DNA of 64,000 nt from a virus: the IMG/VR virus record IMGVR_UViG_3300027278_000009. One strand, given 5' to 3'. Of the stretch, positions 28,001-51,153 are shown piece after piece (position 1 is the first letter of the stretch; the number at the start of each line of letters is the position of its first letter). Under the pieces are notes generated by a model, which was given only the letters and a program-made list of their open reading frames with translations, did no database searches and was not told the origin of the DNA. A program made the position numbers and the translations under genes.

Positions 28001-31000
28001 CTAGAATCGATGCTATCTTATTAGCTTCTTCAGCTGATAAAGATTCATTTGCTGAAATTGTTTCATTAATCAATGCAGTTGACACAGTTAATGATGACGC
28101 TTTAGCAGTAGTTATTGCAAACTTAAATGCAGAAATCTCAGCTACTAACACAGAGGTTAATTCTTTAGTTGCAGTTGATTCTTCATTATCTTCAGCTATT
28201 TCTACGGAAGCATCTACAAGAGCTACAGCAGATACATCATTATCTACTGCAATCTCTACGGAAACATCTACAAGAGCCGCTGCTGATACTTCTTTATCTA
28301 CAGCAATTTCTACTCAAGCTTCTGCAAGAGTTACGGCTGATGCTTCTTTATCTACAGCAATTTCTGCTGAAGCAGTTGCAAGAGCTGCGGCTGACGTTAC
28401 TTTACAAGCTAACGTTAATGCTGAAGCATCTGCAAGAGCTGCTGCTGATTTAGCTTTAGATTTAAGAATTCAACCAATTGAAACTGAGCTTCCTAATATA
28501 GAAGCTTCAATCGATTCTTTAGAATCTGTAGATGCTGGTTTACAAGCTCAAATCAACGCAATCCCTGCAACAGAGGATTATGTTGATGCTGCTGCACTTT
28601 CTGGTAATATTCTTACATTAACTAGAGTATTAGGCGGACAAGTTTCTGTTGATTTAAGCCAGTTTATGGATGACACAGATACAGATAACTTTGTAACTTC
28701 AGGTTCATTCGATTCTAATACGCAGCAATTAACATTAGTAAAAGCAAATGGCAATGTTACAATTGATTTAACACAATTAGTAAATGAATCAGAATTAGCA
28801 GCCGCACTTTTAGCAGCTAATCAGTATTCAGACGATAACGACACTTTCGTAAACGGTGCAACATTTAACGATACAACTAGAGTTTTAACAATTTCTAGAA
28901 ATGATGGTACTAATTACGATGTAAATATTACGGGAGCTCAAGGTTTCCAAGGCTTCCAAGGTATAAAAGGAGATAAAGGTTTCCAAGGTTTCCAAGGAGC
29001 TAAAGGTGACCAAGGTTTCCAAGGTTTCCAAGGAGCTAAAGGTGACCAAGGCTTCCAAGGTTTCAAAGGAGATCAAGGTTTCCAAGGTATCAAAGGAGAT
29101 CAAGGTTTCCAAGGTATCAAAGGTGATCAAGGTTTCCAAGGTATAAAAGGAGATAAAGGTGACCAAGGCTTCCAAGGTATAAAAGGAGATAAAGGTTTCC
29201 AAGGTTTCCAAGGAGACAGAGGTTTCCAAGGTTTCCAAGGAGACAGAGGTTTCCAAGGTTTCCAAGGAGATAAAGGTTTCCAAGGAGATAAAGGTTTCCA
29301 AGGTTTCCAAGGAGACAGAGGTTTCCAAGGTTTCCAAGGAGATAAAGGTTTCCAAGGAGACAGAGGTTTCCAAGGTTTCCAAGGAGATAAAGGTTTCCAA
29401 GGAGACAGAGGTTTCCAAGGTTTCCAAGGAGACAGAGGTTTCCAAGGTTTCCAAGGAGATAAAGGTTTCCAAGGAGACAGAGGTTTCCAAGGTTTCCAAG
29501 GAGATAAAGGTTTCCAAGGCTTCCAAGGAGCTAAAGGTGACCAAGGTTTCCAAGGAGCTAAAGGTGACCAAGGCTTCAAAGGCGATCAAGGCGCACAAGG
29601 TACACAAGGTAACAAAGGTGATCAAGGCGCTAAAGGTGATCAAGGATTTAAAGGTGATCAGGGTTCTACTGGTCAAAGAGGTAGTGATTGGACAAGCGGA
29701 GCCGGTCTTCCGGATCCAGGCGATAACGGCCAGCTTATAGGAGATCAGTACTTACAAACAGGAACAGGCAACGTATATGTATGGAATGGTTCTACATGGG
29801 TATTATCTGGAAATATCAAAGGTGCTCAAGGTTTCAAAGGTGATCAAGGTGCTCAAGGTGCTCAAGGTAACCAAGGTATGAAAGGATCATTATCAGGTAC
29901 TTCTACAAATCCTGGTGGAGATGGTATTGTTGGTGAATTCGTTGGCCAATTATACATTTCATCTTCTGGTGCAATCTTCTCTTGGTCAGGCTCTTATTGG
30001 GCTCCAGCCGGTAACTGGACAGGCGCTCAAGGTGCTCAAGGTAACCAAGGTGCTGCAGGTACTAACGGTACTAACGGTACTCAAGGTTCTCAAGGTTCTT
30101 CAGCAATGGTTGAAGGTATTTGGAAATGGCAGAATGATGGTCAATCATCAAATTCTGGTGAAATCTCTGGCCCAACGTCATTTACTAACCCATTCATGGA
30201 AGTAGGTAATACTTATATTACTTCATTAACATTCAATGTACTTGATAAGGACGGAGATAGCTTTGCATCTGCATTCGCAGCGGCAGGCCCAGGTACTCAA
30301 ATGATGATATCGACCGTTAACGCTCCACACGCAGGTGCCGGCACGTTTACAGTTAGTAGCATCACAACAGTTGGCAACTACTACATTGTCAACGGTACAA
30401 TGAACAGTACTGTGCTTCCATTTAACAATGCATTCCCAGATGACAAATGGGTTTATGTTGAATTTGCAATTGTTGCGCAACAAGGTGTTCAAGGTTCTTC
30501 AGGTAACCAAGGTTTCCAAGGTGCTCAAGGTACACAAGGTCGTCAAGGTCCACAAGGTTTCCAAGGTATCAAAGGTGCTCAAGGTACTCAAGGTAACCAA
30601 GGTAATCAGGGTATCAAAGGTGATCAAGGTTTCCAAGGTATCAAAGGTGATCAAGGTTTCCAAGGTATCAAAGGTGATCAAGGTTTCCAAGGTTTCAAAG
30701 GTAACCAAGGTCTTTACGGTGCTCAAGGTACTCAAGGTAACCAAGGTAATCAGGGTATCAAAGGTGATCAAGGTTTCCAAGGTATCAAAGGTGATCAAGG
30801 TTTCCAAGGTATCAAGGGTAACCAAGGTAATCAGGGTCCTACGGGTCCTGAAGGTCCTTCAGGAACTGATGGTTCTAATGGTTCACAAGGTAACCAAGGT
30901 CCTACAGGTACTCAAGGTACACAAGGTCGCCAAGGTCCTACAGGCCCTACGTTATCAGTTGTGAATAACACTAACAATAACATTATTACAGCAACTGGTG

Positions 31001-31497
31001 GTTCAACAGTTAATGGTGAAGGTGGTTTAACGTTCAGCGGTACTACATTCAGTTTCCAGAATGGTGAAATCAAAATGACTAATGACACTGACGCAGGAAC
31101 AGCTTATGGTACTCCGTGGCACCTTAACATTGTTCCAGGCAATATGCCTAACGATGGCGTATTTGACGCACCAGTTCCAGTAATGTTTGATATGCTAGGT
31201 GGAGGTATTGGTATCCAAGCATCTTCATTAAGATTCAAATCTGACGTTGAACCTTTAGAGTTTAATATGGGAGCATTCCTAAGCTTGAACGCTAGAGAGT
31301 TCACATGGACAGAAACAGGTAAGAGAGATATTGGTTTCATCGCCGAAGAAGTTGTAGAATTCGATCCAAGAATCGGTGTTACAGACGGCCAAGGAGGTTA
31401 TATCTCAATGCACTATGACAAAATGACAGTCTACTTATTCCAAGTGGTTAAGCACTTAAATGCTAGAATCGCAGAATTGGAGAGCAGATTAAAATAA
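25048..31497 (+). CDS. Giant fibre protein: collagen-like segments, long coiled coil and C-terminal intramolecular chaperone (peptidase S74-like)
   Basis: Gly-X-Y runs, 18-aa AEASARAAADVTLQANVD repeats, terminal SSLRFKSDV...IGFIAEEV...YDKM...coiled coil. Confidence 0.9.
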   Translation: MAYSAYIATSGPQGETGPIGSQGDQGFQGFQGDQGTQGTQGTQGNQGDQGFQGFQGDQGFQGFQGDQGTQGTQGTQGTQGDQGTQGTQGTQGDQGFQGFQGDQGTQGTQGTQGDQGTQGTQGTQGDQGFQGFQGDQGTQGTQGTQGFQGDQGTQGTQGTQGFQGFQGAQGVQGFQGNTLPVGGGITDGVAVAVDSSNVTTYAGLTYSDGDLNVSGNINATNITDINNDIATLQSDLTTEVSTRAAADITLQGNIDAEASARDAADVTLQANVDAEASARIASDATLQDNIDAEAVARAAADVVLSTADVTLQGNINAEASARAAAIATVSSAVSTEASTRAAADVTLQGNIDAEASARISGDATLSSAISTEVSNRTSADATLSSAISTEAAVRDSGDASLTQAIAQTNLITAQNYGFVSTDILEEEAARIAADVVLQDNIDAEAVARANADTSLATSVSAEATARASADVTLQGNIDAEASARISGDATLSSAVSTEVSNRVSADVVLQDNIDVEASARANADITLQANVNAEASARAAADVTLQANVDAEASARISAVSSLATSIGVEQSRIDAILLASDADKDSFAEIVSLINAVDTTNDDALAVVIANLNAEISSTNADVISINTAISDEASLRVSGDSTLSSAISSEASARATADSTLQANINAEATARASAASSLTSRVSVEEDARAAADVTLQANVNAEASARAAADVTLQANVDAEATARAAADLTLQGNIDAEASARAAAIATVSSAVSTEASARATADTSLATSISTEVSNRTTADATLSSAISTEVSNRTSADATLSSAISTEVSNRTSVDTVLSSAISSEVSTRSTADTSLTSRISTEESTRSTADTSLTSRISTEESTRATAIGSVSTAVSAEASTRATADVSLAGSVSAEASARAAADAVLSTADVALQDNIDAEAVARAAADVTLQGNIDAEASTRAAADVTLQSNIDIEVSARISAVSSLATSIGVEQSRIDAILLASSADKDSFAEIVSLINAVDTVNDDALAVVIANLNAEISATNTEVNSLVAVDSSLSSAISTEASTRATADTSLSTAISTETSTRAAADTSLSTAISTQASARVTADASLSTAISAEAVARAAADVTLQANVNAEASARAAADLALDLRIQPIETELPNIEASIDSLESVDAGLQAQINAIPATEDYVDAAALSGNILTLTRVLGGQVSVDLSQFMDDTDTDNFVTSGSFDSNTQQLTLVKANGNVTIDLTQLVNESELAAALLAANQYSDDNDTFVNGATFNDTTRVLTISRNDGTNYDVNITGAQGFQGFQGIKGDKGFQGFQGAKGDQGFQGFQGAKGDQGFQGFKGDQGFQGIKGDQGFQGIKGDQGFQGIKGDKGDQGFQGIKGDKGFQGFQGDRGFQGFQGDRGFQGFQGDKGFQGDKGFQGFQGDRGFQGFQGDKGFQGDRGFQGFQGDKGFQGDRGFQGFQGDRGFQGFQGDKGFQGDRGFQGFQGDKGFQGFQGAKGDQGFQGAKGDQGFKGDQGAQGTQGNKGDQGAKGDQGFKGDQGSTGQRGSDWTSGAGLPDPGDNGQLIGDQYLQTGTGNVYVWNGSTWVLSGNIKGAQGFKGDQGAQGAQGNQGMKGSLSGTSTNPGGDGIVGEFVGQLYISSSGAIFSWSGSYWAPAGNWTGAQGAQGNQGAAGTNGTNGTQGSQGSSAMVEGIWKWQNDGQSSNSGEISGPTSFTNPFMEVGNTYITSLTFNVLDKDGDSFASAFAAAGPGTQMMISTVNAPHAGAGTFTVSSITTVGNYYIVNGTMNSTVLPFNNAFPDDKWVYVEFAIVAQQGVQGSSGNQGFQGAQGTQGRQGPQGFQGIKGAQGTQGNQGNQGIKGDQGFQGIKGDQGFQGIKGDQGFQGFKGNQGLYGAQGTQGNQGNQGIKGDQGFQGIKGDQGFQGIKGNQGNQGPTGPEGPSGTDGSNGSQGNQGPTGTQGTQGRQGPTGPTLSVVNNTNNNIITATGGSTVNGEGGLTFSGTTFSFQNGEIKMTNDTDAGTAYGTPWHLNIVPGNMPNDGVFDAPVPVMFDMLGGGIGIQASSLRFKSDVEPLEFNMGAFLSLNAREFTWTETGKRDIGFIAEEVVEFDPRIGVTDGQGGYISMHYDKMTVYLFQVVKHLNARIAELESRLK
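25078..25578 (+). repeat. Pro-poor collagen-like repeat (GFQ/GDQ/GTQ)
   Basis: 9-nt periodic CAAGGT-rich tandem repeat. Confidence 0.95.
25723..28560 (+). repeat. Ala/Ser-rich coiled-coil repeat region
   Basis: Recurrent GCTGAAGCATCTGCAAGA blocks, approx. 54-nt units. Confidence 0.9.
28933..29673 (+). repeat. Collagen-like repeat (GFQ/GDK/GDR/GIK)
   Basis: Tandem GGTTTCCAA / GGAGATAAA / GGAGACAGA units. Confidence 0.95.
30481..30948 (+). repeat. Collagen-like repeat ([12 protein letters not shown])
   Basis: Gly-X-Y run before the [10 protein letters not shown] module. Confidence 0.9.
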
Positions 31498-31562: not shown

Positions 31563-33656
31563 ATGGCAACAAGAATTAGTTTAAAAGATTTAGCATCGCT
31601 AAGATCTAATTTGAAGCTTGTATCTGATGAGGCTGCTATACTTAAACAAAAGTATACTGCTTCAAGATTAACAGGTGAAAGCAAGCCACTTCAGTATGGT
31701 GCAGATGAGACATACACTTCTCTTTTCAAATTAGGTCCGATTGTTTCTGAATTAGTTGACGGTGTTGCAGGTCTTGAAACGGAACTCCAACACATTCACC
31801 AATATATTGAGGGACAGTTAGGTAGAGATGCTGACGTATCTATCTTACCACCAAACGTTCAAATCGATAATAACGGTACTCCAGTGCAGCTTTTATCTAT
31901 TGGCGCAAATGGTACTGAATTGCACATTGATGAATTATACGTGGGTCCTAATTCGTTATATGTTAACGGAAAGAAGGTTATCCACGATAGTTCTGATACA
32001 ATTATCTTATCAACAGATAGAGATAAAGCATTTGTAGTACAAACGACAGGTGCTGGTGTTTTACAATTACAAGCACAAGCTGGTGGTATTAATGTAACAT
32101 CAGAAGGTGGACTGACAATTAACTCTGATATCACAGTTAATTCATCAAAATCTATCTCAGGATCAAACGCAACAACTGGCTTACAAGTTGGTAAAACTCA
32201 AGTTAATGGTCAATTAACAGTTGATGGTAACATCATCTTAGACCAGCAATTTAAAATTGCATTTGCAGGCGATGCATTAAATACATTTATTGCAGCAAAT
32301 ACAAACACACCAGAGGATTTAGAAATCCACGCAGATCAAAACATTAACCTTAAACCAGATAACAACGTATTAGTTAATGGCACGCCAATTATCAATGAAT
32401 TAGGTCAGTGGATTGGTTCAGTAGCTGGTATGCAAGGTGCTCAAGGTACTCAAGGTAATACAGGTCGTGATGGTAACCAAGGTTTCCAAGGTGCTACAGG
32501 CGCTAAAGGTGATCAAGGTACTCAAGGTAGACAAGGTCCTACAGGTCCACAAGGTTTCCAAGGTGCTACAGGTGCTAAAGGTGATCAAGGTTTCAAAGGT
32601 GATCAAGGCGCTAAAGGTGATCAAGGTTTCCAAGGGGCTCAAGGAGCTAAAGGCGATCAAGGCTTCCAAGGCGCTAAAGGTGATCAAGGTATCAAAGGTG
32701 ATCAAGGTACTCAAGGTAGACAAGGTCCTACGGGTCCACAAGGTTTCCAAGGTACTACAGGCGCTAAAGGTGATCAAGGTTTCCAAGGTGCAGCTGGTAG
32801 AGATGGTTCTACAGGCGCTAAAGGTGATCAAGGTTTCAAAGGTGATCAAGGCGCTAAAGGTGATCAAGGTTTCCAAGGTGCTACAGGCATTAAAGGTGAT
32901 CAAGGTATCAAAGGTGATCAAGGTATTACAGGTGCTCAAGGTACTCAAGGTAGACAAGGTCCAACCGGTCCACAAGGAGTTACAGGTACTAAAGGTGATA
33001 CTGGTGCTACTGGTTCTGCGGGTGGTTCAATCACAAATGCTAGATTACAAGGTCTTGATTTATTAATCACTGGCGATGCGTTTGGAGAATTAAACGTAGG
33101 TAGAGTATATGGTGAAACTGGAGCAACTGGCGCACAGGGTTCTACTGGAGCTAAAGGTGATCAAGGTTTCCAAGGAGCTACAGGAGCTACAGGTGCTAAA
33201 GGCGATACAGGTATCAAAGGTGATCAAGGTATTACAGGTGCTCAAGGTACTCAAGGTAGACAAGGTCCTACAGGTCCACAAGGTTCTACTGGAGCTCAAG
33301 GTTCTACTGGAGCTCAAGGTTTCCAAGGTGCTAAAGGCGATACAGGTATCAAAGGTGATCAAGGTATTACAGGTGCTCAAGGTACTCAAGGTAGACAAGG
33401 TCCAACCGGTCCACAAGGTTCTACTGGAGCTCAAGGTTTCAAGGGTGATCAAGGTTCTACTGGTCCAACTGGTCCTACTTTAGCTGTTGTAAATAACACA
33501 AACAATAACATTATTACAGCAACTGGTGGTTCAACAGTTAATGGCGAGTCTAACTTAACATTCGACGGTTCAACACTTTACACAACGGCTTTAAGAGTTG
33601 ATGGTTTCATCATCGATCAAAACGCTAATGGTGATTTAGAGTTTAGAATTGTATAA
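31563..33656 (+). CDS. Collagen-like fibre protein with N-terminal coiled-coil and beta-rich domains
   Basis: GAKGDQGFQ and [12 protein letters not shown] repeats; C-terminal [15 protein letters not shown] module shared with 25048. Confidence 0.88.
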
Positions 33657-33730: not shown

Positions 33731-33916
33731 ATGTACATCGTATCATTTACAAATAAATACATAGTTTTCGATAATAGCGGTAATAATATTGCTGAATTTG
33801 GCTCTTCTGAAGATGCCAAAAATTTCATTTTAAATAATGAAGAAACAACTACAGAAAATATAAAAGAATATCCTTTTTATGAAGTGGACGAACACGGCCA
33901 ACCTATTGGCAACTGA
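33731..33916 (+). CDS. 61-aa acidic hypothetical protein
   Basis: ORF with an A-rich leader; overlaps the next gene by 38 nt. Confidence 0.6.
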   Translation: MYIVSFTNKYIVFDNSGNNIAEFGSSEDAKNFILNNEETTTENIKEYPFYEVDEHGQPIGN

Positions 33917-34964
33917 GATTAACGAAACGTTATCATACGACGAAACCTTAGGCCGTACTAATTTGTACACTAATGGAAATTTCGAATTTGGTAACAATTA
34001 TAATTTTACAGGAGCATCGATCTCTTCAGCAGATCCGCATTCTGGAAATTATCACTTATCACAAACAAATACTAATCAATGGTTATCTGATGAGTTTGTT
34101 TCAGTCGATACTTCAAAGGAATATGAAATTTCTTTATGGGCTAAAACAGCTCAAAGAAATGCGCAAGGCAGCTTATCCGGCAGTTATCTTGGATTTGCAT
34201 GTTTTGACGCATTTTATAATTTTATTGATTTAAGAAACTGTGGAGATATTGGTAACACATATTTGACAAGACCTGCTAACCCAGGTGATAGCATCATTTA
34301 TATCGAATCTTCAAATAACTGGTATGTCGGCACTGATGTAACTTCGAATACATGGTATTTTAGACATGTTCTTTTCTTTCCGCCATCACATCCAGAATAT
34401 GGTCAACCACACAGATACACAAGAATCGGATATGGCGATTATAACATTATATACAGAGGACTAGTACAGGTTAGCCCTAATGAGTGGCAGATGACCCTAG
34501 AATCACCCCTTCCAAATATTGGATATGAATTACCAGCTGGAACACCGATTTCACGAGGTGTAGCGGGAGGGACTTATAACTACGCATTTGGAGCGCCATA
34601 CATTCCAGAAACGTGGACTAACTATAGACAAATAATACCTGCAAATGCTGAATGTTACAATTCAGACACCAGGTTTAGATATAACGCAGCATACATTAAA
34701 TTTATGATTTTAGGCAATTATCTAGTTGCCGGCCAAGGTTCTCCTTATCCTACATTATATTTAGATGATATTGCAATTGCATGTTCTTCAGAATTCCAAG
34801 GAAATGAATCAAACCAGGTAGCAAAATCAAAGAAAGCTTCATCTGGCATAATGTATGCACAAGAATTTAATGAATTAAATACAGGAGGTCCTATTAACGG
34901 TCAAATTGGAGTCTTAAGTAGAGACGGAGAATTAACAGTTAACGGCGAAATCATAGAAGAATAA
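33879..34964 (+). CDS. Putative tail/fibre protein with carbohydrate-binding-like beta-sandwich
   Basis: NLYTNGNFEFG and YEISLWAK resemble CBM4/9-type motifs; aromatic-rich. Confidence 0.55.
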   Translation: MKWTNTANLLATEINETLSYDETLGRTNLYTNGNFEFGNNYNFTGASISSADPHSGNYHLSQTNTNQWLSDEFVSVDTSKEYEISLWAKTAQRNAQGSLSGSYLGFACFDAFYNFIDLRNCGDIGNTYLTRPANPGDSIIYIESSNNWYVGTDVTSNTWYFRHVLFFPPSHPEYGQPHRYTRIGYGDYNIIYRGLVQVSPNEWQMTLESPLPNIGYELPAGTPISRGVAGGTYNYAFGAPYIPETWTNYRQIIPANAECYNSDTRFRYNAAYIKFMILGNYLVAGQGSPYPTLYLDDIAIACSSEFQGNESNQVAKSKKASSGIMYAQEFNELNTGGPINGQIGVLSRDGELTVNGEIIEE

Positions 34965-34966
34965 AA

Positions 34967-36451
34967 ATGGCTAATCATTCAAAATTTATCGCTAGTGAAA
35001 GCGAATTTCAAGTAGAAAATGGCTCCTTAATTGAAGGGGCTTCTTTAGGTACTAATGTTGTTGCTAAAATGAATAGAACAACTGGTGATTTAGAAGCTTT
35101 AAATATTAGTGAGACTTATAATGCATTAGATGCTCTTGGATGGCACATTAACGAAGACGGCCGAAGATGGTGGTCTAATCCAAACAGCCAAACATTTGGT
35201 ACAGAAAATGCCGGAGGCGCTGGCCCAGGTTGGTATGTTTATAAACAATCAAATATTTATACAACAATGCGTAAATATGCTGGTAAAGATTCTCTTTACG
35301 GTATGCATATTTTTAGATATCCTAATATCACTTCAGATTCTACTTGGGGTGGTTTAAGTTTATATCCGCCAGCAGCTTGTAAATTAAGAGGCCATAAGTA
35401 TAGATTCTCATTTGATTACAGAGGATCTACTAATGGAAATTATATGGAAATTTTCCAAAACCATACAATTGGTTGGGGTAGCTTAGGTATTGGTTTACCA
35501 ACTCCATGGAACCAACCCATCGGAGCATTCGATACAGATTGGGAATGGCAAAGATATGAATATGATTTTACAATTGAAGATCAATATTTAGATTGGGTAC
35601 CGGGTTCTAATGGAACGGTATGGGATCCAAATGTTCAATACGGTCATTGGAGTTTGGTTACACATGAAGGATATGTATATAGAAAACCAAGCTGGACTGG
35701 AACTCCAACAAAAGGTGTTCCACCAAGTGAAGAGTATCCAAGTATTTGGGATTATAGAACAGAACAGGTTGCTGGATCTTTTGATTTGTATAATAATCTT
35801 AAAATTGGATTTACGTACCAATCGCAAGGGTCTAGAGGCACTCACGTATTTATTGATAATATTCAAATCACAGATATTACTAATAATAATAGATTTAAGT
35901 ATAACGGAACAGGTTGGGAAGCTGATAACTTAGCTGAAAAGACAACACACATTTTTGCTAAAGGAACCGCGTATGGTGGAGTTTTCCAAAATGGTGATGT
36001 TGCCCAGGGAGATGTTTTTGCAATTGAAGGTTCTAGAGTTGTTAGAATTAATGGAATCGATGCTGGTGTTCCAGGCGGTAGAGGTATGGCTTTAACAGTT
36101 ATAGAAGAATCTTCAGGCACTGTTCTTTCACAAGAAGTATTTGATATTTATAGTGTTGATGCTAGAAGAACTGATCTTGCTAATGCTTTAGCAGCAATTG
36201 GTCCAGAACAACTTTGGGTTTTAACGTCGTTTGACGCTATTAATCCTAATGCTGCATTAGATGCTCAAATGGCTTCAATGGGATCAATTCTTTTAGTTAA
36301 TGATGGAAATGAATATTCAGTATTTAAGAACGGTGGATACAGAAGCACATACGCTGCGGTTGGTAGAGGTCAAAAACTTATCAAAGAAGACGGATCTACA
36401 CAAGGCGAAACAGTGTATAAGAGAAAAGGGGTTATCGATCTAAAAGTTTAA
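34967..36451 (+). CDS. Putative receptor-binding protein: CBM5/12-like insert plus C-terminal ILEI/GG-type lectin-like domain
   Basis: WDPNVQY...LVTHEGYVY; GRGMALTVI...FDIY...LANALAAI...VLTSFDA...YRSTYAAVG. Confidence 0.55.
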   Translation: MANHSKFIASESEFQVENGSLIEGASLGTNVVAKMNRTTGDLEALNISETYNALDALGWHINEDGRRWWSNPNSQTFGTENAGGAGPGWYVYKQSNIYTTMRKYAGKDSLYGMHIFRYPNITSDSTWGGLSLYPPAACKLRGHKYRFSFDYRGSTNGNYMEIFQNHTIGWGSLGIGLPTPWNQPIGAFDTDWEWQRYEYDFTIEDQYLDWVPGSNGTVWDPNVQYGHWSLVTHEGYVYRKPSWTGTPTKGVPPSEEYPSIWDYRTEQVAGSFDLYNNLKIGFTYQSQGSRGTHVFIDNIQITDITNNNRFKYNGTGWEADNLAEKTTHIFAKGTAYGGVFQNGDVAQGDVFAIEGSRVVRINGIDAGVPGGRGMALTVIEESSGTVLSQEVFDIYSVDARRTDLANALAAIGPEQLWVLTSFDAINPNAALDAQMASMGSILLVNDGNEYSVFKNGGYRSTYAAVGRGQKLIKEDGSTQGETVYKRKGVIDLKV

Positions 36452-36482: not shown

Positions 36483-36641
36483 ATGGAAGAGCAAATTCAA
36501 GGTATAGAAAATGAATTAGGTTTTATTACTTTAGAGATAAATTCTGCCCAAACCGAACAAGAAAGGCAATCTATCGAGGATAGATATAGTAATAAAATCC
36601 AAAACTTAGTTCAACAATTAGAACAGTTAAAAAACAATTAA
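36483..36641 (+). CDS. 52-aa coiled-coil protein
   Basis: Hand-translated MEEQIQGIENELGFITLEINSAQTEQERQSIEDRYSNKIQNLVQQLEQLKNN. Confidence 0.65.
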   Translation: MEEQIQGIENELGFITLEINSAQTEQERQSIEDRYSNKIQNLVQQLEQLKNN

Positions 36642-36649
36642 TATAGACA

Positions 36650-38311
36650 ATGGCTCAATTAAAATCAGGAACTACAATCGGAGGTCATTTAGTATTACAT
36701 GCTGGCAACTTTGACCAAAACTCTTATTTGAGTTTTAAAGGAGCAACAGGTCCTCAAGGTTATAAAGGTGTCCAGGGTTATAAAGGAGCAACTGGTAACC
36801 AAGGTGCTCAAGGATCTCAAGGGGTTCAGGGTACTAAAGGATTTACAGGATTTAATGGTGACCAAGGTTATGTTGGTCCAACTGGTCCAACAGGATATAC
36901 CGGTGCTAATGGTTATAAAGGTATTACAGGAGATACAGGTTATCAAGGCGCAACTGGACCAACTGCTTACGTTGGTTATCAAGGTGCTAAAGGTCCAACT
37001 GGCACGCAAGGTGCTAAAGGTTATGTTGGTCCAACTGGTAACCAAGGATCTACTGGTCAAATTGGCCCAATAGGTCCACAAGGATATACTGGTGTTCAAG
37101 GTGTTGCAGGACCATTAGGTCCTCAAGGTGGTAATGGAGCAGTAGGTGCTCAAGGTCCACAAGGCGCTCAAGGTGTTCAAGGTACTGGTGGTAACCAAGG
37201 AAGTACTGGAGGCCCGGGTCCAAGAGGCCCACAAGGTGCTGCACAAACAACGAGAGGTCCACAAGGGGCTAAAGGTAATCAAGGTGCAAGAGGTCCACAA
37301 GGTTCTCAAGGTAATACAGGCCCACAAGGTTATGTTGGATTTCAAGGAGATCAAGGTGTACAAGGTACTGCACAAACAACAACAGGTCCACAAGGGGCTA
37401 AAGGTTCACAAGGACCTAGAGGTCCACAAGGCGATATGGGTCCTGATGGTTATATTGGATATATTGGTTATCAAGGTGATCAAGGTGTACAAGGTCCAGC
37501 ACAAACAAATGCTGGCCCACAAGGAGGTACAGGACCAAGAGGTCCACAAGGAGACCAAGGTCCAAGAGGTGATCAAGGTTATATTGGTTTCCAAGGAGGT
37601 CAAGGTCCAAGAGGTCCTCAAGGTACTGCGCAGACAAATACAGGTCCACAAGGTGGTAAAGGTTCAACCGGTCCACAAGGCCCACAAGGCCCAAGAGGTC
37701 CACAAGGATATGTTGGTCCAATTGGTCCAAGAGGTCCACAAGGGGATCAAGGATCTGCACAAACAAACGCAGGTCCACAAGGAGCTAAAGGTATTCAAGG
37801 ACCGATTGGTCCGCAAGGAGAAAGAGGTGTTCAAGGATACCAAGGTACCATTGGTTTAACAGGATATACTGGACCAATTGGTATAACTCAAACAACTGTT
37901 GGCCCAACAGGCCCAACTGGACCAATAGGTCCAGTTGGATATATAGGTGGAACAGGTCCACAAGGACATACCGGATATATTGGTGTAACAGGATATATTG
38001 GTCCAGTTGGCCCAGGAGGTCCACAAGGTCCAAGAGGAGCTCAAGGTCCTCAGGGTGGAGATGGTCCACAAGGTCCACAAGGAGATACGGGCGGTAAAGG
38101 TCCTACATCGACTGCAGGTCCTACAGGTCCTAATGGTCCACAAGGAGCAACAGGAACTAAAGGTGCTACTGGATCTCCAGGTCCTAGAGGAGCTACAGGT
38201 TCTACACCACCATTAACCTTGGTTCTTCCAGGCGGTTATAATGGAACATTACAAGATGATAACTACCAAAACTTTACAGTAACTTCTGGTTTTATATCAA
38301 GTATCTATTAA
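36650..38311 (+). CDS. Collagen-like protein A (tandem trio)
   Basis: 30-aa leader [12 protein letters not shown].....HAGN then Gly-X-Y; six G.AQTN/T-type interruptions. Confidence 0.9.
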
Positions 38312-38349
38312 TAAGATAAACTAATTTGAAAAAGAATATAATATAAAAA

Positions 38350-39972
38350 ATGGCAAAATTATCATTAAATACAACAATTGCTGGACAAACGGTTTTTCAC
38401 ACCGGTAATTTTGATAAAAATGCATACACAGCATGGATCGGTAATACCGGTCCAGTTGGTTTAACTGGTGATCAAGGAGTTATTGGTGATCAGGGAGCAA
38501 CAGGATATACAGGTCCAATTGGTTATACTGGTGGTACTGGTAATACTGGAGCTACAGGCTATGTTGGTAATCAAGGTGCTAAAGGAGCAGTTGGAGCAAA
38601 TTCAGCAGTTACTGGAGCACAAGGCGATACTGGATCAACAGGTCCAAAAGGTCCTACAAGCTCAACAGGTCCTAATGGTCCACAAGGTCCTCAAGGTGAT
38701 TCACCTAGAGGTTTCCAAGGAGACCGCGGTCCACAAGGAGCACAGGGATCTTTTCCAACAGGCCCAACAGGGCCAGTAGGTCCACAGGGTGCTAAAGGTA
38801 TTGCTCCAACAGGTCCAACTGGTTACCAAGGATCTCAAGGTGCTACTGGATTTATTGGAAATATTGGTCCTCAAGGTTCTAATGGTCCATTAGGTCCACA
38901 AGGTGCTCAAGGTGTTGATGGTTATCAAGGAGTTGCTGGTCCAATTGGTGAAAGAGGTTTCCAAGGAGATGTTGGAGATACTGGTTATACTGGATATATT
39001 GGCCCTCAAGGTGCTAAAGGATTTACTGGGGCAACAGGTTATGTTGGTTATCAAGGTGGTGCTGGCCCAATTGGTCCAAGAGGTTTCCAAGGAGATACTG
39101 GTGTTCAAGGATATATTGGTAGAACAGGCCCAACAGGTCCAACTGGCCCACAAGGCCCACAAGGATATACTGGAGTTCAAGGTACTGCAGGTCCTTTAGG
39201 CCCAAGAGGTCCACAAGGAGCAACAGGATATACTGGAACAATTGGAGTTACAGGATACAATGGTTTAGTTGGCCCAACAGGTTACATTGGAGTACAAGGT
39301 TATCAAGGTACTGCAGGTCCTGAAGGCCCAAGAGGTTTCCAAGGAGATCAAGGTACACCTGGTTATATTGGCGTTCAAGGATATAAAGGTCCAAATGGTC
39401 CACAAGGCCCACAAGGATATACTGGAGTTCAAGGTACTGCAGGTCCTTTAGGCCCAAGAGGTCCACAAGGAGATATTGGTCCAAATGGTCCTACTGGAGT
39501 AACTGGTTATACTGGTTATATTGGTCCAATTGGCCCTCCTGGAGCAAGAGGTATACAAGGTGCTGCAGGTCCACAAGGTCCTCAAGGTTCTAAAGGACCT
39601 CAAGGTTCTAATGGAACACCTGGTCCATCTGGTCCAACTGGCCTAATTGGCCCACAAGGTCCAAGAGGTCCACAAGGTGCTGTAGGTCCACAAGGTCCTC
39701 AAGGTAATATTGGATATAATGGTTTTACAGGTAGACAAGGTCAACAAGGATACATTGGCCCAACAGGTGGACCAGGAGATTCAACACCAGGTCCACAAGG
39801 CCCACAAGGCCCAAGAGGTCCACAAGGCGGTCCAGGTCCAACTGGACCAAATGGCCCACAAGGATATCAAGGCGTAGATAATGTTAGCGTTTATGCTGGT
39901 GTAGATGGTCAGCTCTTCTTTGAAGGTGGATCAGTTTCCAGACCAGTAGAAGGTGGGTTAATAATGTTCTAA
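38350..39972 (+). CDS. Collagen-like protein B (tandem trio)
   Basis: Paralogous 30-aa leader; long uninterrupted Tyr/Pro/Thr-rich Gly-X-Y run. Confidence 0.9.
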
Positions 39973-40007
39973 TAAATTGAAATTGAAATAAATTATAATA
40001 TAAAAAA

Positions 40008-41702
40008 ATGGCTGTATTAAAAATAGGAACAACAATTGGAGGAAACGTAGCATTACATGCTGGTAATCTTAATCCTTCTAATTTTCCTCAATTCATAGGT
40101 GCTCAAGGTTCTAGAGGCACTCAAGGAGCTAGAGGTCCTCAAGGAGACAAAGGCTACACTGGCCCAACTGGCCCAACTGGTCCAAATGGTGCACAGGGTC
40201 CTCAAGGTTTCCAAGGCTCTAGAGGTTCTCAAGGTGCTACTGGATTCCAAGGTAATCAAGGTGCTATAGGTTCTCAAGGAGCTAAAGGTTCTCAAGGTTC
40301 TCAAGGAATTATTGGAGATAGAGGTCCTCAAGGAGTACAAGGTACTATTGGTTTTACTGGAGCTCCAGGAGCAATAGGATATCAAGGTGAAACAGGATAT
40401 ACTGGATACTTAGGACAACAAGGTCCTCAAGGAGCTAGAGGTTCACAAGGCCTTGTTGGAGTTACTGGAGATCAAGGAGTAACTGGTCCAACTGGTCCAA
40501 CTGGATTTACAGGATATAATGGTCCTGTTGGAGCACCTGGTCCTAAAGGAATTGCACCTACTGGATATACAGGCTATACAGGTAGAACTGGACCAACAGG
40601 TCCATTAGTTACTGGTCCAACAGGATATACTGGCACACAAGGTGGAGCTGGTGGTACTGGTCCTGAAGGCCCAAGAGGTCCACAAGGAGATAAAGGAGCA
40701 GCTGGCCCAACGGGAGCAGTCGGTCCATTAGTTACTGGTCCAACTGGATATACTGGCCCAACAGGCCCTACTGGTGTTCAAGGACCAAGAGGTACACAAG
40801 GTACACAAGGAACTAAAGGAGTTACAGGTTCAACTGGTATTGTGGGTCCTTTAGTTACAGGCCCTACAGGTTATATTGGAGTTAAAGGTCCAGGCGGTCC
40901 ACAAGGTCCAAGAGGTACTCAAGGAACTACAGGCCCAGGCGGTCCAACAGGCCCAACTGGTATTATTGGTCCTTTAGTTACAGGTCCAACTGGATATGTT
41001 GGATATATTGGCACGACAGGTATACCAGGACCAAGAGGACCACAAGGAGATACTGGTCCAATTGGCTATAAAGGCCCAACTGGTCCTGTTGGTCCATTAG
41101 TTACTGGTCCACAAGGATACACTGGCCCAACAGGCCCAAGAGGACCACAAGGTTCTAGAGGTCCACAAGGTCCACAAGGTCCAAGAGGTCCACAAGGTCC
41201 ACAAGGTTATACTGGTCCTCTTGTAACAGGATATCAAGGTGTTCAAGGAGACAGAGGTAATCAAGGAACTTTCCCAAGAGGTCCACAAGGTTCACAAGGA
41301 CCTAGAGGTTACCAAGGTTATGTTGGCCCAACAGGACCAACAGGATTAATTGGTCCAAACTCAACAACCCCTGGTCCAGGCGGTCTACAAGGTTATAAAG
41401 GCCCAACAGGACCAGCAGGATCTGCTGGATCCTCGCCTAACGGCCCACCAGGGCCAAATGGCCCAACAGGCTATACAGGTACAACTGGAGCCCCAGGTGG
41501 AACAGGTGCAAAAGGATTCCCTGGATTTGGATGGGATTCAACAAACCACGTTGGAGGTACATTAACAATAGATCACGTAATGAATGGATATATTGTTAAT
41601 ATTTATAAAGGTAGAATTACAGGTGTTACTCCACAAGCACCACCACCATCTCCATCACCATCTCCAACACCGTCCCCAAGACCAGGAAGAGGTTCAGCTT
41701 AA
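40008..41702 (+). CDS. Collagen-like protein C (tandem trio) with (Ser/Thr-Pro)n tail
   Basis: Paralogous 30-aa leader; six GPLVT interruptions; [17 protein letters not shown] tail. Confidence 0.9.
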
Positions 41703-41796: not shown

Positions 41797-42882
41797 ATGA
41801 TTAACAACTTTTGTATTTGTACTTTAACACATTCAACTCAAGGTAGAGGTAGAGCTTTAAAGTATACTATAAAATCTTTTATGGATGATTATAGTGGCAG
41901 CAAGTTTGAATGGTTTATTTGGGTAAATATAACCGATGACACTATTAATGAAACTTTAGAATGGGCACAAGAAACTTATTCTGACCGTGTTAAATTTAAT
42001 ATCCGGATTAGCGATGTAAATTTAGGTCCAGGCGGAGGGATTAATAGATTAAGCGAAATGTCTAAGGAATACGAATATAGTATCTTCTTAGAAGGAGATT
42101 GGTTATACATTCCAAGTTGGGTTTCAGGATTAAGTCATAATTGGATTCAAGAAAGTATTGAGTTTCTTGAAGTTAATAAAGATGTAACTCATATTCAATT
42201 AAGAAAATATCTAGATGATATGGATGATCGACAATATACATTTGGATATTGGGTCAGACCTGAAAACGTTGAGCAGGTTGTAGATTGGACTGGTAATGAA
42301 TATGCAATTATGCATAAAAGAATGTACACAAATACGCCATGTCTTCGTAGAATGAGTGCATATTATGATTTAGGCGTTTTTCCATTAAAAGAGTTTTATG
42401 ATGAACATGGAAATCCAACCGAACATAAAGGTAATCAAGATTGGGGACAAGCAGAATTACAGACACCAGATGATATGAAAGCTGCTTGGATTTATTATGG
42501 TACATTTGTTCACTTTGAGGATTGGGCTTATGAAGATGATTGGCAACATTATGCAGAAGGTAAATTTGGTTGTGGAGTTTATCCAGCTAGAGGACTTAAC
42601 AGATGTAAATATGGATATTTAGTACCAAACCATTCTTTCTGTACGATGTGTAAGAAGGATAAAGATATTACAGATCATGTTGAGCATATTAAACGCCACA
42701 CAGATCATGTGATTATGCTTAAAGAAGAATTTAAAAACAATCCTCAAGATCTTACATTTGACGTATTCTTAAGTAGAATTGAAGGTTTAATTGAAAATCC
42801 AACAATTAATCCTAGAGAATATAACGATATTGAACTATACCACAATATAGGTGTAATCAGAAAGAAAAATAAACAATCTTAA
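41797..42882 (+). CDS. GT-A/GT2-like glycosyltransferase with Cys-containing C-terminal extension
   Basis: NLGPGGGIN, SIFLEGDW; C...C...CTMC tail. Confidence 0.55.
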   Translation: MINNFCICTLTHSTQGRGRALKYTIKSFMDDYSGSKFEWFIWVNITDDTINETLEWAQETYSDRVKFNIRISDVNLGPGGGINRLSEMSKEYEYSIFLEGDWLYIPSWVSGLSHNWIQESIEFLEVNKDVTHIQLRKYLDDMDDRQYTFGYWVRPENVEQVVDWTGNEYAIMHKRMYTNTPCLRRMSAYYDLGVFPLKEFYDEHGNPTEHKGNQDWGQAELQTPDDMKAAWIYYGTFVHFEDWAYEDDWQHYAEGKFGCGVYPARGLNRCKYGYLVPNHSFCTMCKKDKDITDHVEHIKRHTDHVIMLKEEFKNNPQDLTFDVFLSRIEGLIENPTINPREYNDIELYHNIGVIRKKNKQS

Positions 42883-42906: not shown

Positions 42907-43860
42907 TTGACAATTATGCACGAAACAGCAAGTTCAAATGTATTACTAAACTTAGATAGAGCAGTTAAAAGTGATACTCTCTATACCTTAACAGGTTGGG
43001 TTGCTTCAAATCTTGGTAAGATTACCGAGTTTTGGACAGCTAATGAGAACGGTTACAAACACATTAAATTAGGGGCTAAATTCTATTCTCGCCCTGATGT
43101 ATTGGATTTTTATCCACAATTTGCAAATAATGTAGATTCATTAGGATTTGAATTTGGATTAAGCAGATCAGCAATTTCTACAGGGTTTGTGGTTGTATTA
43201 GAAGATGGTACTGAGCATTTCATTGGTAGTTTACATGCTGCTATTATTGAAAAATCAGGATTTATGCCAACAACTCATAAAGATCTTATTGTTGTTGATG
43301 ATTTCTACGCGGACCCAGATGCTGTTCGAGAATTTGCAATTAATAATTTAGAATTCCAACCTTCAAATTACCATAAGGGCCAAAGAACACATGGCAGATT
43401 TATTCTTGAAGGAACTAAAGAAAAGCTTGAAGAAATTATCGGCCGTAAGATTATTAATTGGAACCACACTTCTTATGCTAATGGTGTTTTCCAATTCTGT
43501 ACTGCGGATCAACCTATTGTGTACCATATCGATACACAAATGCTAGCAGCAATGGTATATCTTACGCCAAATGCTCCAGTTTCTTCTGGTACAGCGATGT
43601 ACAAGAGTAAGATTAATGGTGTTCGCAATTTCCCAGGTGATAGTAGAAATTCTAATCTATATGAAGAAGTATTTAAAGGAATTAGTGATTCAATGAATTT
43701 CTACGATTCATCACAATATGAAATGGTAGATACTTTAGGTAACGTATATAACCGATTAGTTATTTTCAATTCTTCTAATATTCACGCAGCAACTCAGTAT
43801 TTTGGTGATGCAATCCATAATGCTAGATTCTTTCACATGTTCTTCTTTGATGTTGAATAA
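42907..43860 (+). CDS. Two-domain protein: unknown N-terminus plus DUF6445-like 2OG-Fe(II) oxygenase
   Basis: IVVDDFYADPDAVR, HxD (HID), AAMVYL.P.AP...GT, YNRLVIF, IHA; start may be ATG 42916. Confidence 0.65.
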   Translation: MTIMHETASSNVLLNLDRAVKSDTLYTLTGWVASNLGKITEFWTANENGYKHIKLGAKFYSRPDVLDFYPQFANNVDSLGFEFGLSRSAISTGFVVVLEDGTEHFIGSLHAAIIEKSGFMPTTHKDLIVVDDFYADPDAVREFAINNLEFQPSNYHKGQRTHGRFILEGTKEKLEEIIGRKIINWNHTSYANGVFQFCTADQPIVYHIDTQMLAAMVYLTPNAPVSSGTAMYKSKINGVRNFPGDSRNSNLYEEVFKGISDSMNFYDSSQYEMVDTLGNVYNRLVIFNSSNIHAATQYFGDAIHNARFFHMFFFDVE

Positions 43861-43873
43861 AATAAATTTATAA

Positions 43874-45772
43874 ATGGCTTATAATTTACATATCTTAACA
43901 AGATGTACGCGTCCTAAAAATTTAACGACAGTACAAAATTCTGTTTTCACAGATACACACGGATTAAACATAACTTGGCACGTTATATTTGATACAGCAC
44001 CTTTAAAGGATATTGATGCTGAATTATTATCAAGTATTTCAGGTCCACAAACTAAAATTCATTTCATCAATGCAGGGGATGGCGGTCTTTTATATCCACA
44101 ATGCACTGAATTAATTAAAGGAATTGAAGATCAAGATGCATGGATTTATTTCCTTGATGATGATAATATCTTACATGAAAACTTTTACAATAGAGTTTCT
44201 GAGTTTGTAAAAGAAAATGCAAAGATCCATGTATTTTCCCAATATATTGGTGGAAAAGATTTTACAGGATTAGAAGTTAGGCATGCGACTTTTGAAAATA
44301 CTGGTTTCCAAAAAACAGATATTGCACAGATTATTTTCAAAAGATCATTGATGGAAGATTATACGTTTGGAAGTAATTATGCAGCAGATGGATATTTTAT
44401 TTCAGCAGTTCTCAAAGATCACTTTGATTGGTTTAGCTGGCATAATGAAATCTTATCTTATTATAACCATTTGGAAAAGCCATCAAAGGCTAGAATTCCA
44501 AAGGTAATTTACATTGGTCCAGGCCAGCCTGAATTAATTAGCCGTCAATTTGTAAATTACGAGGCAAACGATCTTGACGTAAAGTATTTTGAGAATGATA
44601 ATGGCATTGTTCAACAAATTATAGAATTTAATCCAGATTCTATTGTTACAGTAGGAGGCACTTGGCAAGATTATCCAAATCTTGCATCTCTTCCAATTTC
44701 TTTACGTAGAAAATGGAATCATGTTGAAGATGTAAATATACCAATCGATGAAATCGGTTCAAGAGCGTATATGGGAGCAATGACAACCATGCTCAGTCCT
44801 CAATATTTAAATGATGAAGAAACTATTTCGTTTGTTACACCAATCTATAACACTGGTACTAAATTATATCAAACATACCAATCTCTCGCTCGTCAGACTT
44901 ATGAAAACTGGGAATGGGTTCTAGTGAATGATTCATCCGATGGTGGTAAAACATTGAAGATCGCTGAGAAGATTGCAGCAATGGATCCTAGAGTTAAGGT
45001 ATATGACTTTAGAGAAAAATCAGGTGGAATTATCGGTGAAGTTAAATATCGTGGTAACGCTCTTGCAAGAGGATACATTTTGGCAGAATTCGATCATGAT
45101 GATATTTTAACACCAAACGCAGCAATGGATATTCATTTAGCGGCGAAAAAGCACCCAGAGTGCGGATTCTTCTACACTGATTGTACTGAATGGACAGAAG
45201 AAGGAGAATCATTAAGATATGATCCAGGCTTTGCATTCTCTTATGGTAATTATAGATTAGAAGAATATGAAGGTAAAGATGTTTGGGTATGTAATCAACA
45301 TGACATTAATCCTAAAACAATTCGACATATTGTTGGTGTACCTAACCACGTAAGAGCTTGGAGAAAATCTACATACTTTGAAATTGGTGGTCATAACCGA
45401 GGATTAGCAATTGCTGATGATTATGAATTAGTTGTACGCACATTCTTACATACTAAGATGTGTCGTATTCCAAATCTATGTTACATTCAATATATCTACA
45501 ATAATGCAGGTGGACAAAATACACACAATTTGGCCCGAGCAGATATTCAACGTAGAGTTCGTACTATTATGTACTACTATAATGAACAAATTAAAGATAG
45601 ATTTGAAGAACTTGGATTATACGACTGGGCATACTATGAAAATCCAAATGCACCATTACATGTTCAATCCAAATTTGGTGAAGAAGAACAAGTTGCAAAT
45701 ATTACATACGTTGAAGGAGAAACCCTCAATCCAGACGCTGTAAACAAACCAGCTCTACAAGAAACATGGTAA
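43874..45772 (+). CDS. Tandem (two-domain) GT2 glycosyltransferase
   Basis: WIYFLDDDN in domain 1; ISFVTPIYN, WEWVLVNDSSD, AEFDHDD, ADDYEL in domain 2. Confidence 0.85.
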   Translation: MAYNLHILTRCTRPKNLTTVQNSVFTDTHGLNITWHVIFDTAPLKDIDAELLSSISGPQTKIHFINAGDGGLLYPQCTELIKGIEDQDAWIYFLDDDNILHENFYNRVSEFVKENAKIHVFSQYIGGKDFTGLEVRHATFENTGFQKTDIAQIIFKRSLMEDYTFGSNYAADGYFISAVLKDHFDWFSWHNEILSYYNHLEKPSKARIPKVIYIGPGQPELISRQFVNYEANDLDVKYFENDNGIVQQIIEFNPDSIVTVGGTWQDYPNLASLPISLRRKWNHVEDVNIPIDEIGSRAYMGAMTTMLSPQYLNDEETISFVTPIYNTGTKLYQTYQSLARQTYENWEWVLVNDSSDGGKTLKIAEKIAAMDPRVKVYDFREKSGGIIGEVKYRGNALARGYILAEFDHDDILTPNAAMDIHLAAKKHPECGFFYTDCTEWTEEGESLRYDPGFAFSYGNYRLEEYEGKDVWVCNQHDINPKTIRHIVGVPNHVRAWRKSTYFEIGGHNRGLAIADDYELVVRTFLHTKMCRIPNLCYIQYIYNNAGGQNTHNLARADIQRRVRTIMYYYNEQIKDRFEELGLYDWAYYENPNAPLHVQSKFGEEEQVANITYVEGETLNPDAVNKPALQETW

Positions 45773-46440
45773 CATTTATCATACCTACTTTATGGAAGTC
45801 TGAATGCATCTACAAAACAATAGATGCCATTCAGGCTTCTACTATTTCAGGTATTGAATTGTTTATATTTGATAATGCAAAATCAGGATATGAATCACCA
45901 GACTCTAGAATTAAAGTAGTTAATGATAAAGATTATTGGGTTAATCCAGCATGGAACCGCGGGGTCGAATTAGCAAGCAACGAGTGGATTTGCTTATTAA
46001 ATGATGATATACACGTCAATGTAGATCTTTTATGTAAAACATTTAAAAGAGACGTAATAGATAAGCCTGAAGTTGTATCATCCTTTGGTAATTTAGGTTA
46101 TAAAACTTCTCAACCGTTTTATGAAGAGATAAATGGAGATAATGAGGAATTAAATGTAATTCCACAGCCTTTTAAAGGAAATGGATACGGCCAACTTATA
46201 ATTATTAACAAAAAAGATTGGTCGCCTATTCCTGAATATTTTAGAGTTTATTTTGGAGACGATTTTATACACTATGTAACTGAAAATCTTCTCCAAAAAC
46301 AAAGTTTATGTTTCGATAACTTAAAAGCCATTGGACAATACAGCGCAACTTCACGAGAGATCGAATATATTTTACAACAAGAATTTACGTTTTGGAATAA
46401 AGCCGTAAATGATATTAGAGACAAATTAACAAACAATTAA
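45766..46440 (+). CDS. GT2-family glycosyltransferase
   Basis: TFIIPT, FIFDN, VNPAWNRG, CLLNDD, YFGDD. Confidence 0.8.
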   Translation: MVTFIIPTLWKSECIYKTIDAIQASTISGIELFIFDNAKSGYESPDSRIKVVNDKDYWVNPAWNRGVELASNEWICLLNDDIHVNVDLLCKTFKRDVIDKPEVVSSFGNLGYKTSQPFYEEINGDNEELNVIPQPFKGNGYGQLIIINKKDWSPIPEYFRVYFGDDFIHYVTENLLQKQSLCFDNLKAIGQYSATSREIEYILQQEFTFWNKAVNDIRDKLTNN

Positions 46441-46444
46441 AATT

Positions 46445-47041
46445 ATGAAAACAGATTACGTTTTTCCGTACAAACACAATGATCCACAACAGTGGTATTG
46501 GTTTAAAGAAGGATTTTCTAGATCAGAATTGCATAAGATTTATGCAGACTTGCAGAATATTCCTTTTGAAAGAGCAACAACGTTAGGTAGCACCGATGGT
46601 GGTGAAGTAAGACGTTCAAATATTAAGTGGCTCCCGCGTGATGAACATTGGGGATGGGTATATGAAAAATTAATCAATATGGCTGTTGAGGCTAATAACT
46701 CTCTTTGGCATTTTGATTTGCATACTGCGCCTGAACAGATTCAATACACCGAATATGATGCAGCCGAGTTAGGTCATTACGATTGGCACCAAGATATTGG
46801 ACACGGCGGAGCTTCTCTTAGAAAGGTTTCTATTACGGTTCAATTATCGGAGTCAAACGAATATGATGGAGGAGATCTTGAAATCTGGCAAGGTGGAGAT
46901 ATCGATACAGCACAATACACACCGCGTGGAGCAGGTAATGTGATCATTTTCCCAAGCTATATGCCTCACCGTGTAAAACCAGTTACAAAAGGACTTAGAC
47001 GTTCCTTTGTATTATGGGTAGGCGGAGAGCATTACAAATAA
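46445..47041 (+). CDS. 2OG-Fe(II) oxygenase (prolyl-4-hydroxylase/PKHD-like)
   Basis: YDWHQD, RKVSITVQL, YDGGDLE, IFPS..PHRVKPVTKG.R.S. Confidence 0.85.
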   Translation: MKTDYVFPYKHNDPQQWYWFKEGFSRSELHKIYADLQNIPFERATTLGSTDGGEVRRSNIKWLPRDEHWGWVYEKLINMAVEANNSLWHFDLHTAPEQIQYTEYDAAELGHYDWHQDIGHGGASLRKVSITVQLSESNEYDGGDLEIWQGGDIDTAQYTPRGAGNVIIFPSYMPHRVKPVTKGLRRSFVLWVGGEHYK

Positions 47042-50927: not shown

Positions 50928-51153
50928 CGAATTTGAAGACAACGGTATTGAACACATCATCCAAGGATCGAAAGATACTATGATGAATATGATCTATAAA
51001 GCGATTGTTAATAATGAACAAGATGCTTTAAGCAGCAACACACCAGCTAATGAAAAGTTAGATGCTCTTACTAACGTTCTACAATATTTTGAAGGCACTG
51101 AAGAATATGAAAAGTGCTTTAATATTAAAAAAATCATTGATAAAATATGTTGA
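50920..51153 (+). CDS. Small protein with C-terminal UVR-like motif (paralogue 3)
   Basis: YFEGTEEYEKCFNIKKII. Confidence 0.75.
   Translation: MLSEFEDNGIEHIIQGSKDTMMNMIYKAIVNNEQDALSSNTPANEKLDALTNVLQYFEGTEEYEKCFNIKKIIDKIC

Follow-up and report, generated by a model that had tools for sequence, protein, structure and literature searches.

Triple helices built from different collagen chains have, to our knowledge, so far been described in animals only and are regarded as an animal trait. Three tandem collagen genes in IMG/VR virus record IMGVR_UViG_3300027278_000009, of which we analysed a 64,000-nucleotide stretch (hereafter the window), raise the question of whether a virus makes one too: the original prediction, drawn from the letters alone, was that their products, chains A, B and C, form a single heterotrimeric helix that bends the same way at each of its joints. 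Our sequence analysis supports a single A/B/C triple helix: the salt bridges available to the chains are cross-chain only and fall into one register, triplet counts are locked, insertions and deletions (indels) are concerted, and repeat periods match. We find that A, B and C very probably assemble physically into one heterotrimer, in which the three genes would supply three different strands of one collagen helix of ~161 triplets, roughly 140 nm. We also hold, with good confidence, the fuller explanation of three strands in one staggered helix with asymmetric hinges, probably a virion appendage. The genes are laid out as follows:

36650..38311, + strand: chain A, 553 amino acids, predicted middle strand; leader type 1 at 36650-36739, collagen at 36740-38206, tail type 2 at 38207-38311
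38350..39972, + strand: chain B, 540 amino acids, predicted trailing strand; leader type 3 at 38350-38439, collagen at 38440-39879, tail type 1 at 39880-39972
40008..41702, + strand: chain C, 564 amino acids, predicted leading strand; leader type 2 at 40008-40097, collagen at 40098-41531, tail type 3 with a proline (Pro)-rich extension at 41532-41702

The three adjacent collagen open reading frames are real: all match Pfam Collagen (PF01391) at 188–213 bits against a cut-off of 27, and each chain has 152–155 in-register glycines (Gly). The homologous 30-residue leader ascribed to each chain is likewise present, the first Gly being residue 31 in A, B and C and the leaders being ~50% identical. 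The tails comprise 30–56 amino acids; Pfam finds only Collagen in these proteins, with no gC1q and no NC1 (C4) domain among the matches of A, B and C. Counting a joint of 5, 6 or 7 residues as two triplets, A, B and C measure 161, 161 and 162 triplet-equivalents. Their joints and breaks are:

37235..37903, + strand: six +1-residue joints of A (for example, GTAQTTTG), starting at 37235, 37364, 37493, 37622, 37751 and 37880
40599..41231, + strand: six −1-residue joints of C (GPLVTG), starting at 40599, 40722, 40845, 40968, 41091 and 41214
38593..38814, + strand: early breaks of B, namely +1 at triplet 17, a Gly substitution at 23 and solo −1 hinges at 28, 34 and 40

Chain A has Gly-to-Gly joints of seven residues at 196, 239, 282, 325, 368 and 411, which begin at triplets 55, 69, 83, 97, 111 and 125. 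Chain C has joints of five residues at 198, 239, 280, 321, 362 and 403; these fall at triplets 56, 70, 84, 98, 112 and 126, so that every C joint follows an A joint by one triplet, with B intact between. Additional joints of C comprise solo 5s at 181, 420 and 474 and one 7 at 449. Chain B is without interruption from residue 155 to 476, and its X and Y residues carry a hidden repeat (lag 14 triplets, z 6.1; 28, z 6.7; 42, z 3.9; 0/500 shuffles reach these values). The predicted geometry over six joints, seven residues in A, five in C and none interrupted in B (7/6/5), thus stands in its counts, and the periods of A, B and C are 43, 42 and 41 residues.

To establish how the chains would align, we scored all chain pairs and offsets for pairs of lysine (Lys) at Y with an acidic residue at X. 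Within a triple helix, a Y-position Lys pairs with aspartate (Asp) or glutamate (Glu) at i+2 from leading to middle and from middle to trailing chain, and at i+5 from trailing to leading chain (PMC11923368). In the window, C→A pairs at +1 triplet number 6 against 0.6 expected (hypergeometric p 7e-7), A→B pairs at +1 triplet 10 against 0.9 (p 2e-12) and B→C pairs at +2 triplets 5 against 0.3 (p 1e-7), and the offsets +1, +1 and +2 are the i+2, i+2, i+5 geometry of that work. The order C leading, A middle and B trailing at zero shift has 21 bridges against 1/0/0 for the homotrimers, and is the best of 100,467 order-by-shift registers (next best, 14). Pairs outside the repeats number 11 against 0.9 expected. 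The bridges span triplets 2 to 148, crossing every joint, and thereby confirm that both joint types count as two triplets. Predicted pairs include triplets 2, 4, 19, 27 and 30 of A with B at +1, triplets 20, 66 and 80 of C with A at +1, and triplets 22, 39 and 64 of B with C at +2. Pairs of glutamine (Gln), Lys or arginine (Arg) with aromatic residues obey the same chain cycle. The helix would thus be staggered with C leading, A in the middle and B trailing, its register held by cross-chain Lys–Asp/Glu and Gln/Lys/Arg–aromatic pairs in a hydroxyproline-poor sequence. One detail of the original prediction shifts accordingly: residue 203, offered as a common register mark, is Gly in all three chains but equals triplet 57 in A and 58 in B and C, leaving A one triplet off. 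The equal-residue register at 203 was rejected; the salt-bridge signal vanishes in it.

The same pairs bear on an alternative in which three homotrimers, AAA, BBB and CCC, pack side by side in register, with length and breaks locked at the level of the bundle. Such a bundle would account for locked lengths and matched periods, and described prokaryotic collagens are homotrimers (PMC8968730). We nevertheless consider it improbable: the Lys–acid pairs occur only between different chains, in one direction and at within-helix offsets, and a directional cross-chain cycle tells a single ABC helix apart from a bundle of homotrimers. In-chain KGD or KGE is absent from A, B and C; the upstream 697-amino-acid collagen has this homotrimer signature in 20/20 KG. 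In the distant relatives introduced below, a homotrimer of the trailing chain would have all three strands broken every 20 residues.

Searches baited with the DUF6445 and GT2 genes downstream of the trio turned up nine more complete trios, along with three that are partial. No trio emerged when the upstream gene or only the leader served as query, a whole-chain homologue search returned unrelated collagens, and a metagenome scan gave one short contig. Each complete locus of the window's collagen family has exactly three genes. Loci with one, two or four genes in unrelated registers, named in the original prediction as the pattern that would tell against it, did not occur among the complete loci; at greater distance, most DUF6445 loci have a single large collagen that belongs to other families. 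The triplet-equivalents of the three chains in the ten genomes are 161/161/162, 176/176/176, 220/222/220, 241/243/241, 262/263/263, 276/277/277 (twice), 185/184/185, 267/260/259 and 190/191/190. Within a genome the counts differ by 0–2 (8 in one case), whereas across genomes they span 161 to 277 (r>0.998), a locking that 0/100,000 permutations reproduce, also with seven less redundant genomes. Indels are concerted, all three genes gaining alike: 14 triplet-equivalents from locus L101 to L102 and 21 from L099 to L100. The same chain order is best in 10/10 genomes, and pooling five distant relatives gives the same cycle (74/33.5, 78/24.4 and 61/20.0, observed/expected).

These changes also speak to the simplest historical account, that the genes are independent paralogues from a recent triplication and merely inherited their common length and period. 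Leaders, tails and composition are indeed homologous across all three, but A and B share just 65–80% local DNA identity, over short repeats, and same-type leaders group across phages, best for type 2. Length (161 to 277 triplets) and period (14 to 21; in L001 the repeat periods are 63/63/60 residues) changed jointly in all three genes, so that concerted indels contradict simple inheritance, which moreover predicts within-chain or symmetric pairing and not a directional cross-chain cycle. We regard this account as very improbable.

Several points limit the case for a single ABC helix. The ten-genome set (the window plus nine) is related and includes near-duplicates (L101, L102 and L105), and INPHARED holds no close cultured relative. 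Locus L108 is an exception in length, chain 1 being longer by 7–8 triplets (by this parsing), and its margin over the homotrimer is small (62 against 55). Complex prediction of the three C-terminal ends scored 0.44 against 0.02 for the best control, from an input that contained collagen triplets and had no homotrimer arm. The runs agree in at least 91% of contacts with partner pLDDT (predicted local distance difference test) of at least 70, a mark reached by 58/80 solved and 2/110 mismatched pairs; at scores of 0.60 or below it was reached by only 7/80 solved pairs and by both mismatches. This prediction may thus lend the trimer weak support.

Several loci show departures that touch single chains. 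In L106 and L110, inserts of 157–175 amino acids in a single chain leave the triplet count unchanged. Such inserted domains, together with long C-terminal extensions of chain 3, are seen at L106:4861-7203, L110:2891-5554, L110:5584-7932, L106:7228-9510 and L108:6927-9890. The inserts and extensions of L106, L110 and L108 have no Pfam match and are candidate single-copy binding heads.

Trios also occur outside this family. An unrelated T4-like phage carries another trio (L063:1895-6969, also L055 and L060) of 562/569/560 amino acids, with the first Gly at 36 in all; it has 128/128/127 triplet-equivalents and +1 joints in two chains, and adjoins 2OG and GT2 genes. Three tandem collagens at L085:1811-9940 have leaders of ~60 amino acids, 204/208/205 triplet-equivalents and a 14-triplet joint spacing, and are preceded by a Gly/serine (Ser)/asparagine-rich repeat protein. 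Both trios have almost no charges, so the salt-bridge test is uninformative there. At least two phage groups that are unrelated to each other thus have length-locked trios, which suggests that the design recurs in large aquatic phages. A further locus (L021:2285-9305, also L026 and L032) has two collagen genes only, of 313 and 314 triplet-equivalents, one chain with a −1 hinge every 7–8 triplets; this pair is a possible AAB heterotrimer with an ambiguous Lys–acid signal.

Comparison with the relatives also clarifies the hinges. The pairing of a +1 joint in A with a −1 joint in C recurs in L183 (triplets 49/50 and 63/64) and L179 (107/108, 121/122 and 127/128). The 7/6/5 geometry is thus right for the window and L183, with the same +1/−1 pairing in L179, but it was rejected as a family rule: distant relatives shorten the trailing chain only, by one residue every 7 triplets. 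Spacings between their −1 hinges are exactly 7 triplets in 104/153 cases and 14 in 10, and joints of the other two chains sit at trailing-chain hinges in 38/61 cases, against ~0.27 by chance. In both hinge designs the longest chain exceeds the shortest by one residue per 7 triplets. The early breaks of B can be read in this light. They had been held up as a caveat for lacking partners in A or C; the break at residues 101–107 is in fact partnered by A 103–109 (triplets 23/24), and the −1 hinges at 28, 34 and 40 are solo, as stated. These three match the trailing-chain hinges of relatives at 29, 34 and 41, which answers the caveat, and we dropped B's early breaks as evidence against a heterotrimer. 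By position, B's solo breaks appear to be the ancestral trailing-chain hinge of the family.

At regular intervals, then, one strand would be one residue short; in the window's clade the neighbouring strand would be one residue long at the same turn and the third uninterrupted, and such joints would act as built-in asymmetric hinges. Seven triplets make one supercoil turn of the 7/2 collagen helix. Hinge intervals of 14 triplets in the window and of 7 in distant relatives therefore correspond to whole turns, which makes a curved or coiled fibre plausible and the rod probably bent to a consistent side. In a simple helix model, the bend directions of the A and C joints lie no more than 26 degrees apart for a 7/2 helix and 36 degrees for a 10/3 helix, and best-fit twists are 51.5–55 degrees per triplet with a coherence of 0.68–0.90. 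As a rough upper estimate from rigid geometry, a paired joint would bend by ~68 degrees and a solo joint by ~39 degrees, for a radius of ~10 nm. The bends cohere better in the handedness given by the salt bridges than in the opposite one, both in the window (0.75–0.78 against 0.35–0.54) and in L179 (0.84–0.90 against 0.47–0.56). We did not use a random-placement p-value for the hinge spacing, because tandem duplication alone yields regular spacing.

Against a fixed curvature, coherence at 360/7 degrees is automatic with regular spacing. Imino-poor collagen may twist nearer 10/3, at which the modelled coherence drops to at most 0.18. Twist can also be lost near breaks (PMC11463431), and the hinges may be floppy rather than fixed. 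An alternative deserves weight in which the heterotrimer is real but its hinges are flexible joints or twist adjusters in a fibre without fixed curvature. Structures of incommensurate interruptions are unavailable and loops have been proposed (PMC11923368), hinge spacing in L179 alternates between 6 and 7 triplets (with 55 degrees as the best-fit twist), and some +1 joints of distant relatives point in other directions. The regularity of the −1 hinge spacings argues the other way, as do the +1/−1 pairs, which point within 0–36 degrees of each other, and the dependence of coherence on the correct handedness. We regard flexible hinges as a real, if less likely, possibility, and lean slightly towards an ABC fibre that, in this model, would curve consistently to one side as an arc or coil. 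More broadly, the trio may be an obligate viral ABC collagen, with periodic single-chain deletions and insertions phased to the supercoil, in which the genes specify a coiled fibre with a defined radius and retune length, hinges and single-copy side domains jointly; on this wider proposal we are evenly divided.

How three chains would find one another may be read from their ends. Leaders fall into three types by similarity and tails do likewise, with modest tree support on such short segments; leaders of the same type group across phages, most clearly type 2. Most phages combine leader 1 with tail 1, 2 with 2 and 3 with 3. The window, and L180, L183 and L186 as far as recovered, combine 1 with 2, 3 with 1 and 2 with 3, permuted ends that, we infer, would follow from the transposition of a single block through the collagen repeats. 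In every genome, each leader type and each tail type is still represented once, in unchanged cyclic order. The three distinct 30-residue leaders and three distinct short tails probably select one chain of each kind, a role we favour with moderate confidence.

The leaders also hint at where the fibre sits. They resemble residues 1–22 of PHROG 1425 (gp36-like; E 1.3e-4, 11/30 leaders), and also distal tail-fibre PHROGs; the leader profile has no PDB match. Most of the profile's matches among representatives are to repeats within long fibre proteins or to other proteins composed of a leader plus collagen, so the leader alone is no mark of heterotrimers. The following genes flank the trio:

33879..34964, + strand: 361-amino-acid protein with a weak CBM_4_9 match, kept upstream of the trio in the window's clade
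34967..36451, + strand: 494-amino-acid protein, T4 gp35-like (long tail fibre proximal connector; PHROG 1154, E 1.6e-6) with an ILEI-like domain (Pfam ILEI, E 5.6e-5, below cut-off)
36483..36641, + strand: 52-amino-acid open reading frame directly before chain A, conserved in the window's clade, without a PHROG match
42907..47041, + strand: downstream enzyme cassette of DUF6445, two GT2 glycosyltransferases and a 2OG-Fe(II) oxygenase

The 494-residue gene occupies the same position in L179 and L183, and its product is a candidate docking partner of the three leaders. T4 gp35 is a monomeric, asymmetric knee (PMC3004832); a monomeric dock would offer three chains three environments, a plausible route to heterotrimer evolution. 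Counting against this placement, the gp35 and gp36 matches cover short segments and have weak E values (1e-4 to 2e-6). We think it reasonably likely, from these matches, that the trio fibre is located in the tail fibre, probably as a virion appendage with its gp36-like leaders docked on the gp35-like connector. The downstream GT2 and 2OG enzymes may be candidate modifiers of the threonine (Thr)-rich collagen chains; DUF6445 follows the trio in all relatives, yet it also follows single collagens in more distant phages.

Other genes nearby deserve mention. A 361-amino-acid open reading frame between the trio and DUF6445 (41797-42882), present in the window's clade, has no Pfam or PHROG match and looks glycosyltransferase-like by eye. 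Upstream lie a 2,149-amino-acid fibre (25048-31497) of collagen, a long alanine/Ser-rich repeat region and a C-terminal S74 chaperone, and the 697-amino-acid collagen (31563-33656) with many in-chain KGD; both are probably homotrimers. The window comes from the large, AT-rich and phage-like genome of an uncultured giant aquatic bacteriophage: around the trio it encodes a ClpB-like protease, DnaB-like helicase, endonuclease, PhoH, RNase HII, DnaJ and ribosomal protein S21, and relatives occur in IMG/VR. The DNA is also present in five other Joint Genome Institute (JGI) assemblies, differing by one substitution and one probable assembly insertion. In one assembly (L003:9123-10721; window ~39882), a 67-bp insertion at the end of the chain B collagen alters the tail (532 amino acids), probably an assembly artefact. 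The phage-encoded ribosomal protein bS21 (51147-51344) has the same orientation as the flanking DnaJ and PhoH genes. Published bS21 phage clades a–e carry bS21 on the reverse strand inside the terminase–capsid–portal region (Chen et al. 2022), and this different context rules out membership of the window phage. The window's bS21 has 36–48% identity to many phyla and is uninformative as to host; a Bacteroidota host, from A-rich start regions, is only a guess.

Comparison with known systems places the trio apart from each. Literature searches, whose coverage excluded most subscription papers, found no phage heterotrimeric collagen; according to a 2022 review, prokaryotic collagens are homotrimers and those of phages extend over only ~18 residues (PMC8968730). 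Like other prokaryotic and phage collagen-like proteins (Scl, BclA, SPP1 gp12 and the PRD1 spike), the trio has PF01391 repeats, a Thr/Gln-rich Y position and short terminal domains; in contrast to them, its chains lack in-chain KGD and pair solely with each other. With the distal half of the T4 long tail fibre (the monomeric gp35 knee and trimeric gp36) it shares the gp36-like leader motif and the gp35-like gene upstream. However, gp36 is the trimeric product of one gene, predicted to be mainly beta (PMC3004832), whereas the trio's shaft would be collagen from three genes, the match being limited to a short motif.

The closest counterparts in design are animal collagens. C1q too has three genes, one ABC triple helix and a kink within it (PMC5632799), and C1q-derived peptides fold only as a three-chain mix (PMC11463431). 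In contrast to C1q, the trio is viral, has no gC1q head, extends over ~161 triplets, has many periodic hinges where C1q has a single kink, and rarely has Pro at Y. Collagen IV shares the long helix, chain-specific incommensurate interruptions and cross-chain Lys–Asp/Glu bridges (PMC11923368), but the trio has no NC1 domain, its hinges are periodic and one-sided, and its ends are 30-amino-acid motifs. No crystal structure of incommensurate interruptions exists (PMC11923368); this family contains dozens of copies of them and so allows a direct test of whether a triple helix is kinked by such breaks. The family appears to be a naturally occurring ABC collagen, produced in bacteria, whose register code can be read, and is a possible scaffold for register-controlled or curved collagen materials. 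The trio works like C1q or collagen IV and belongs to neither.

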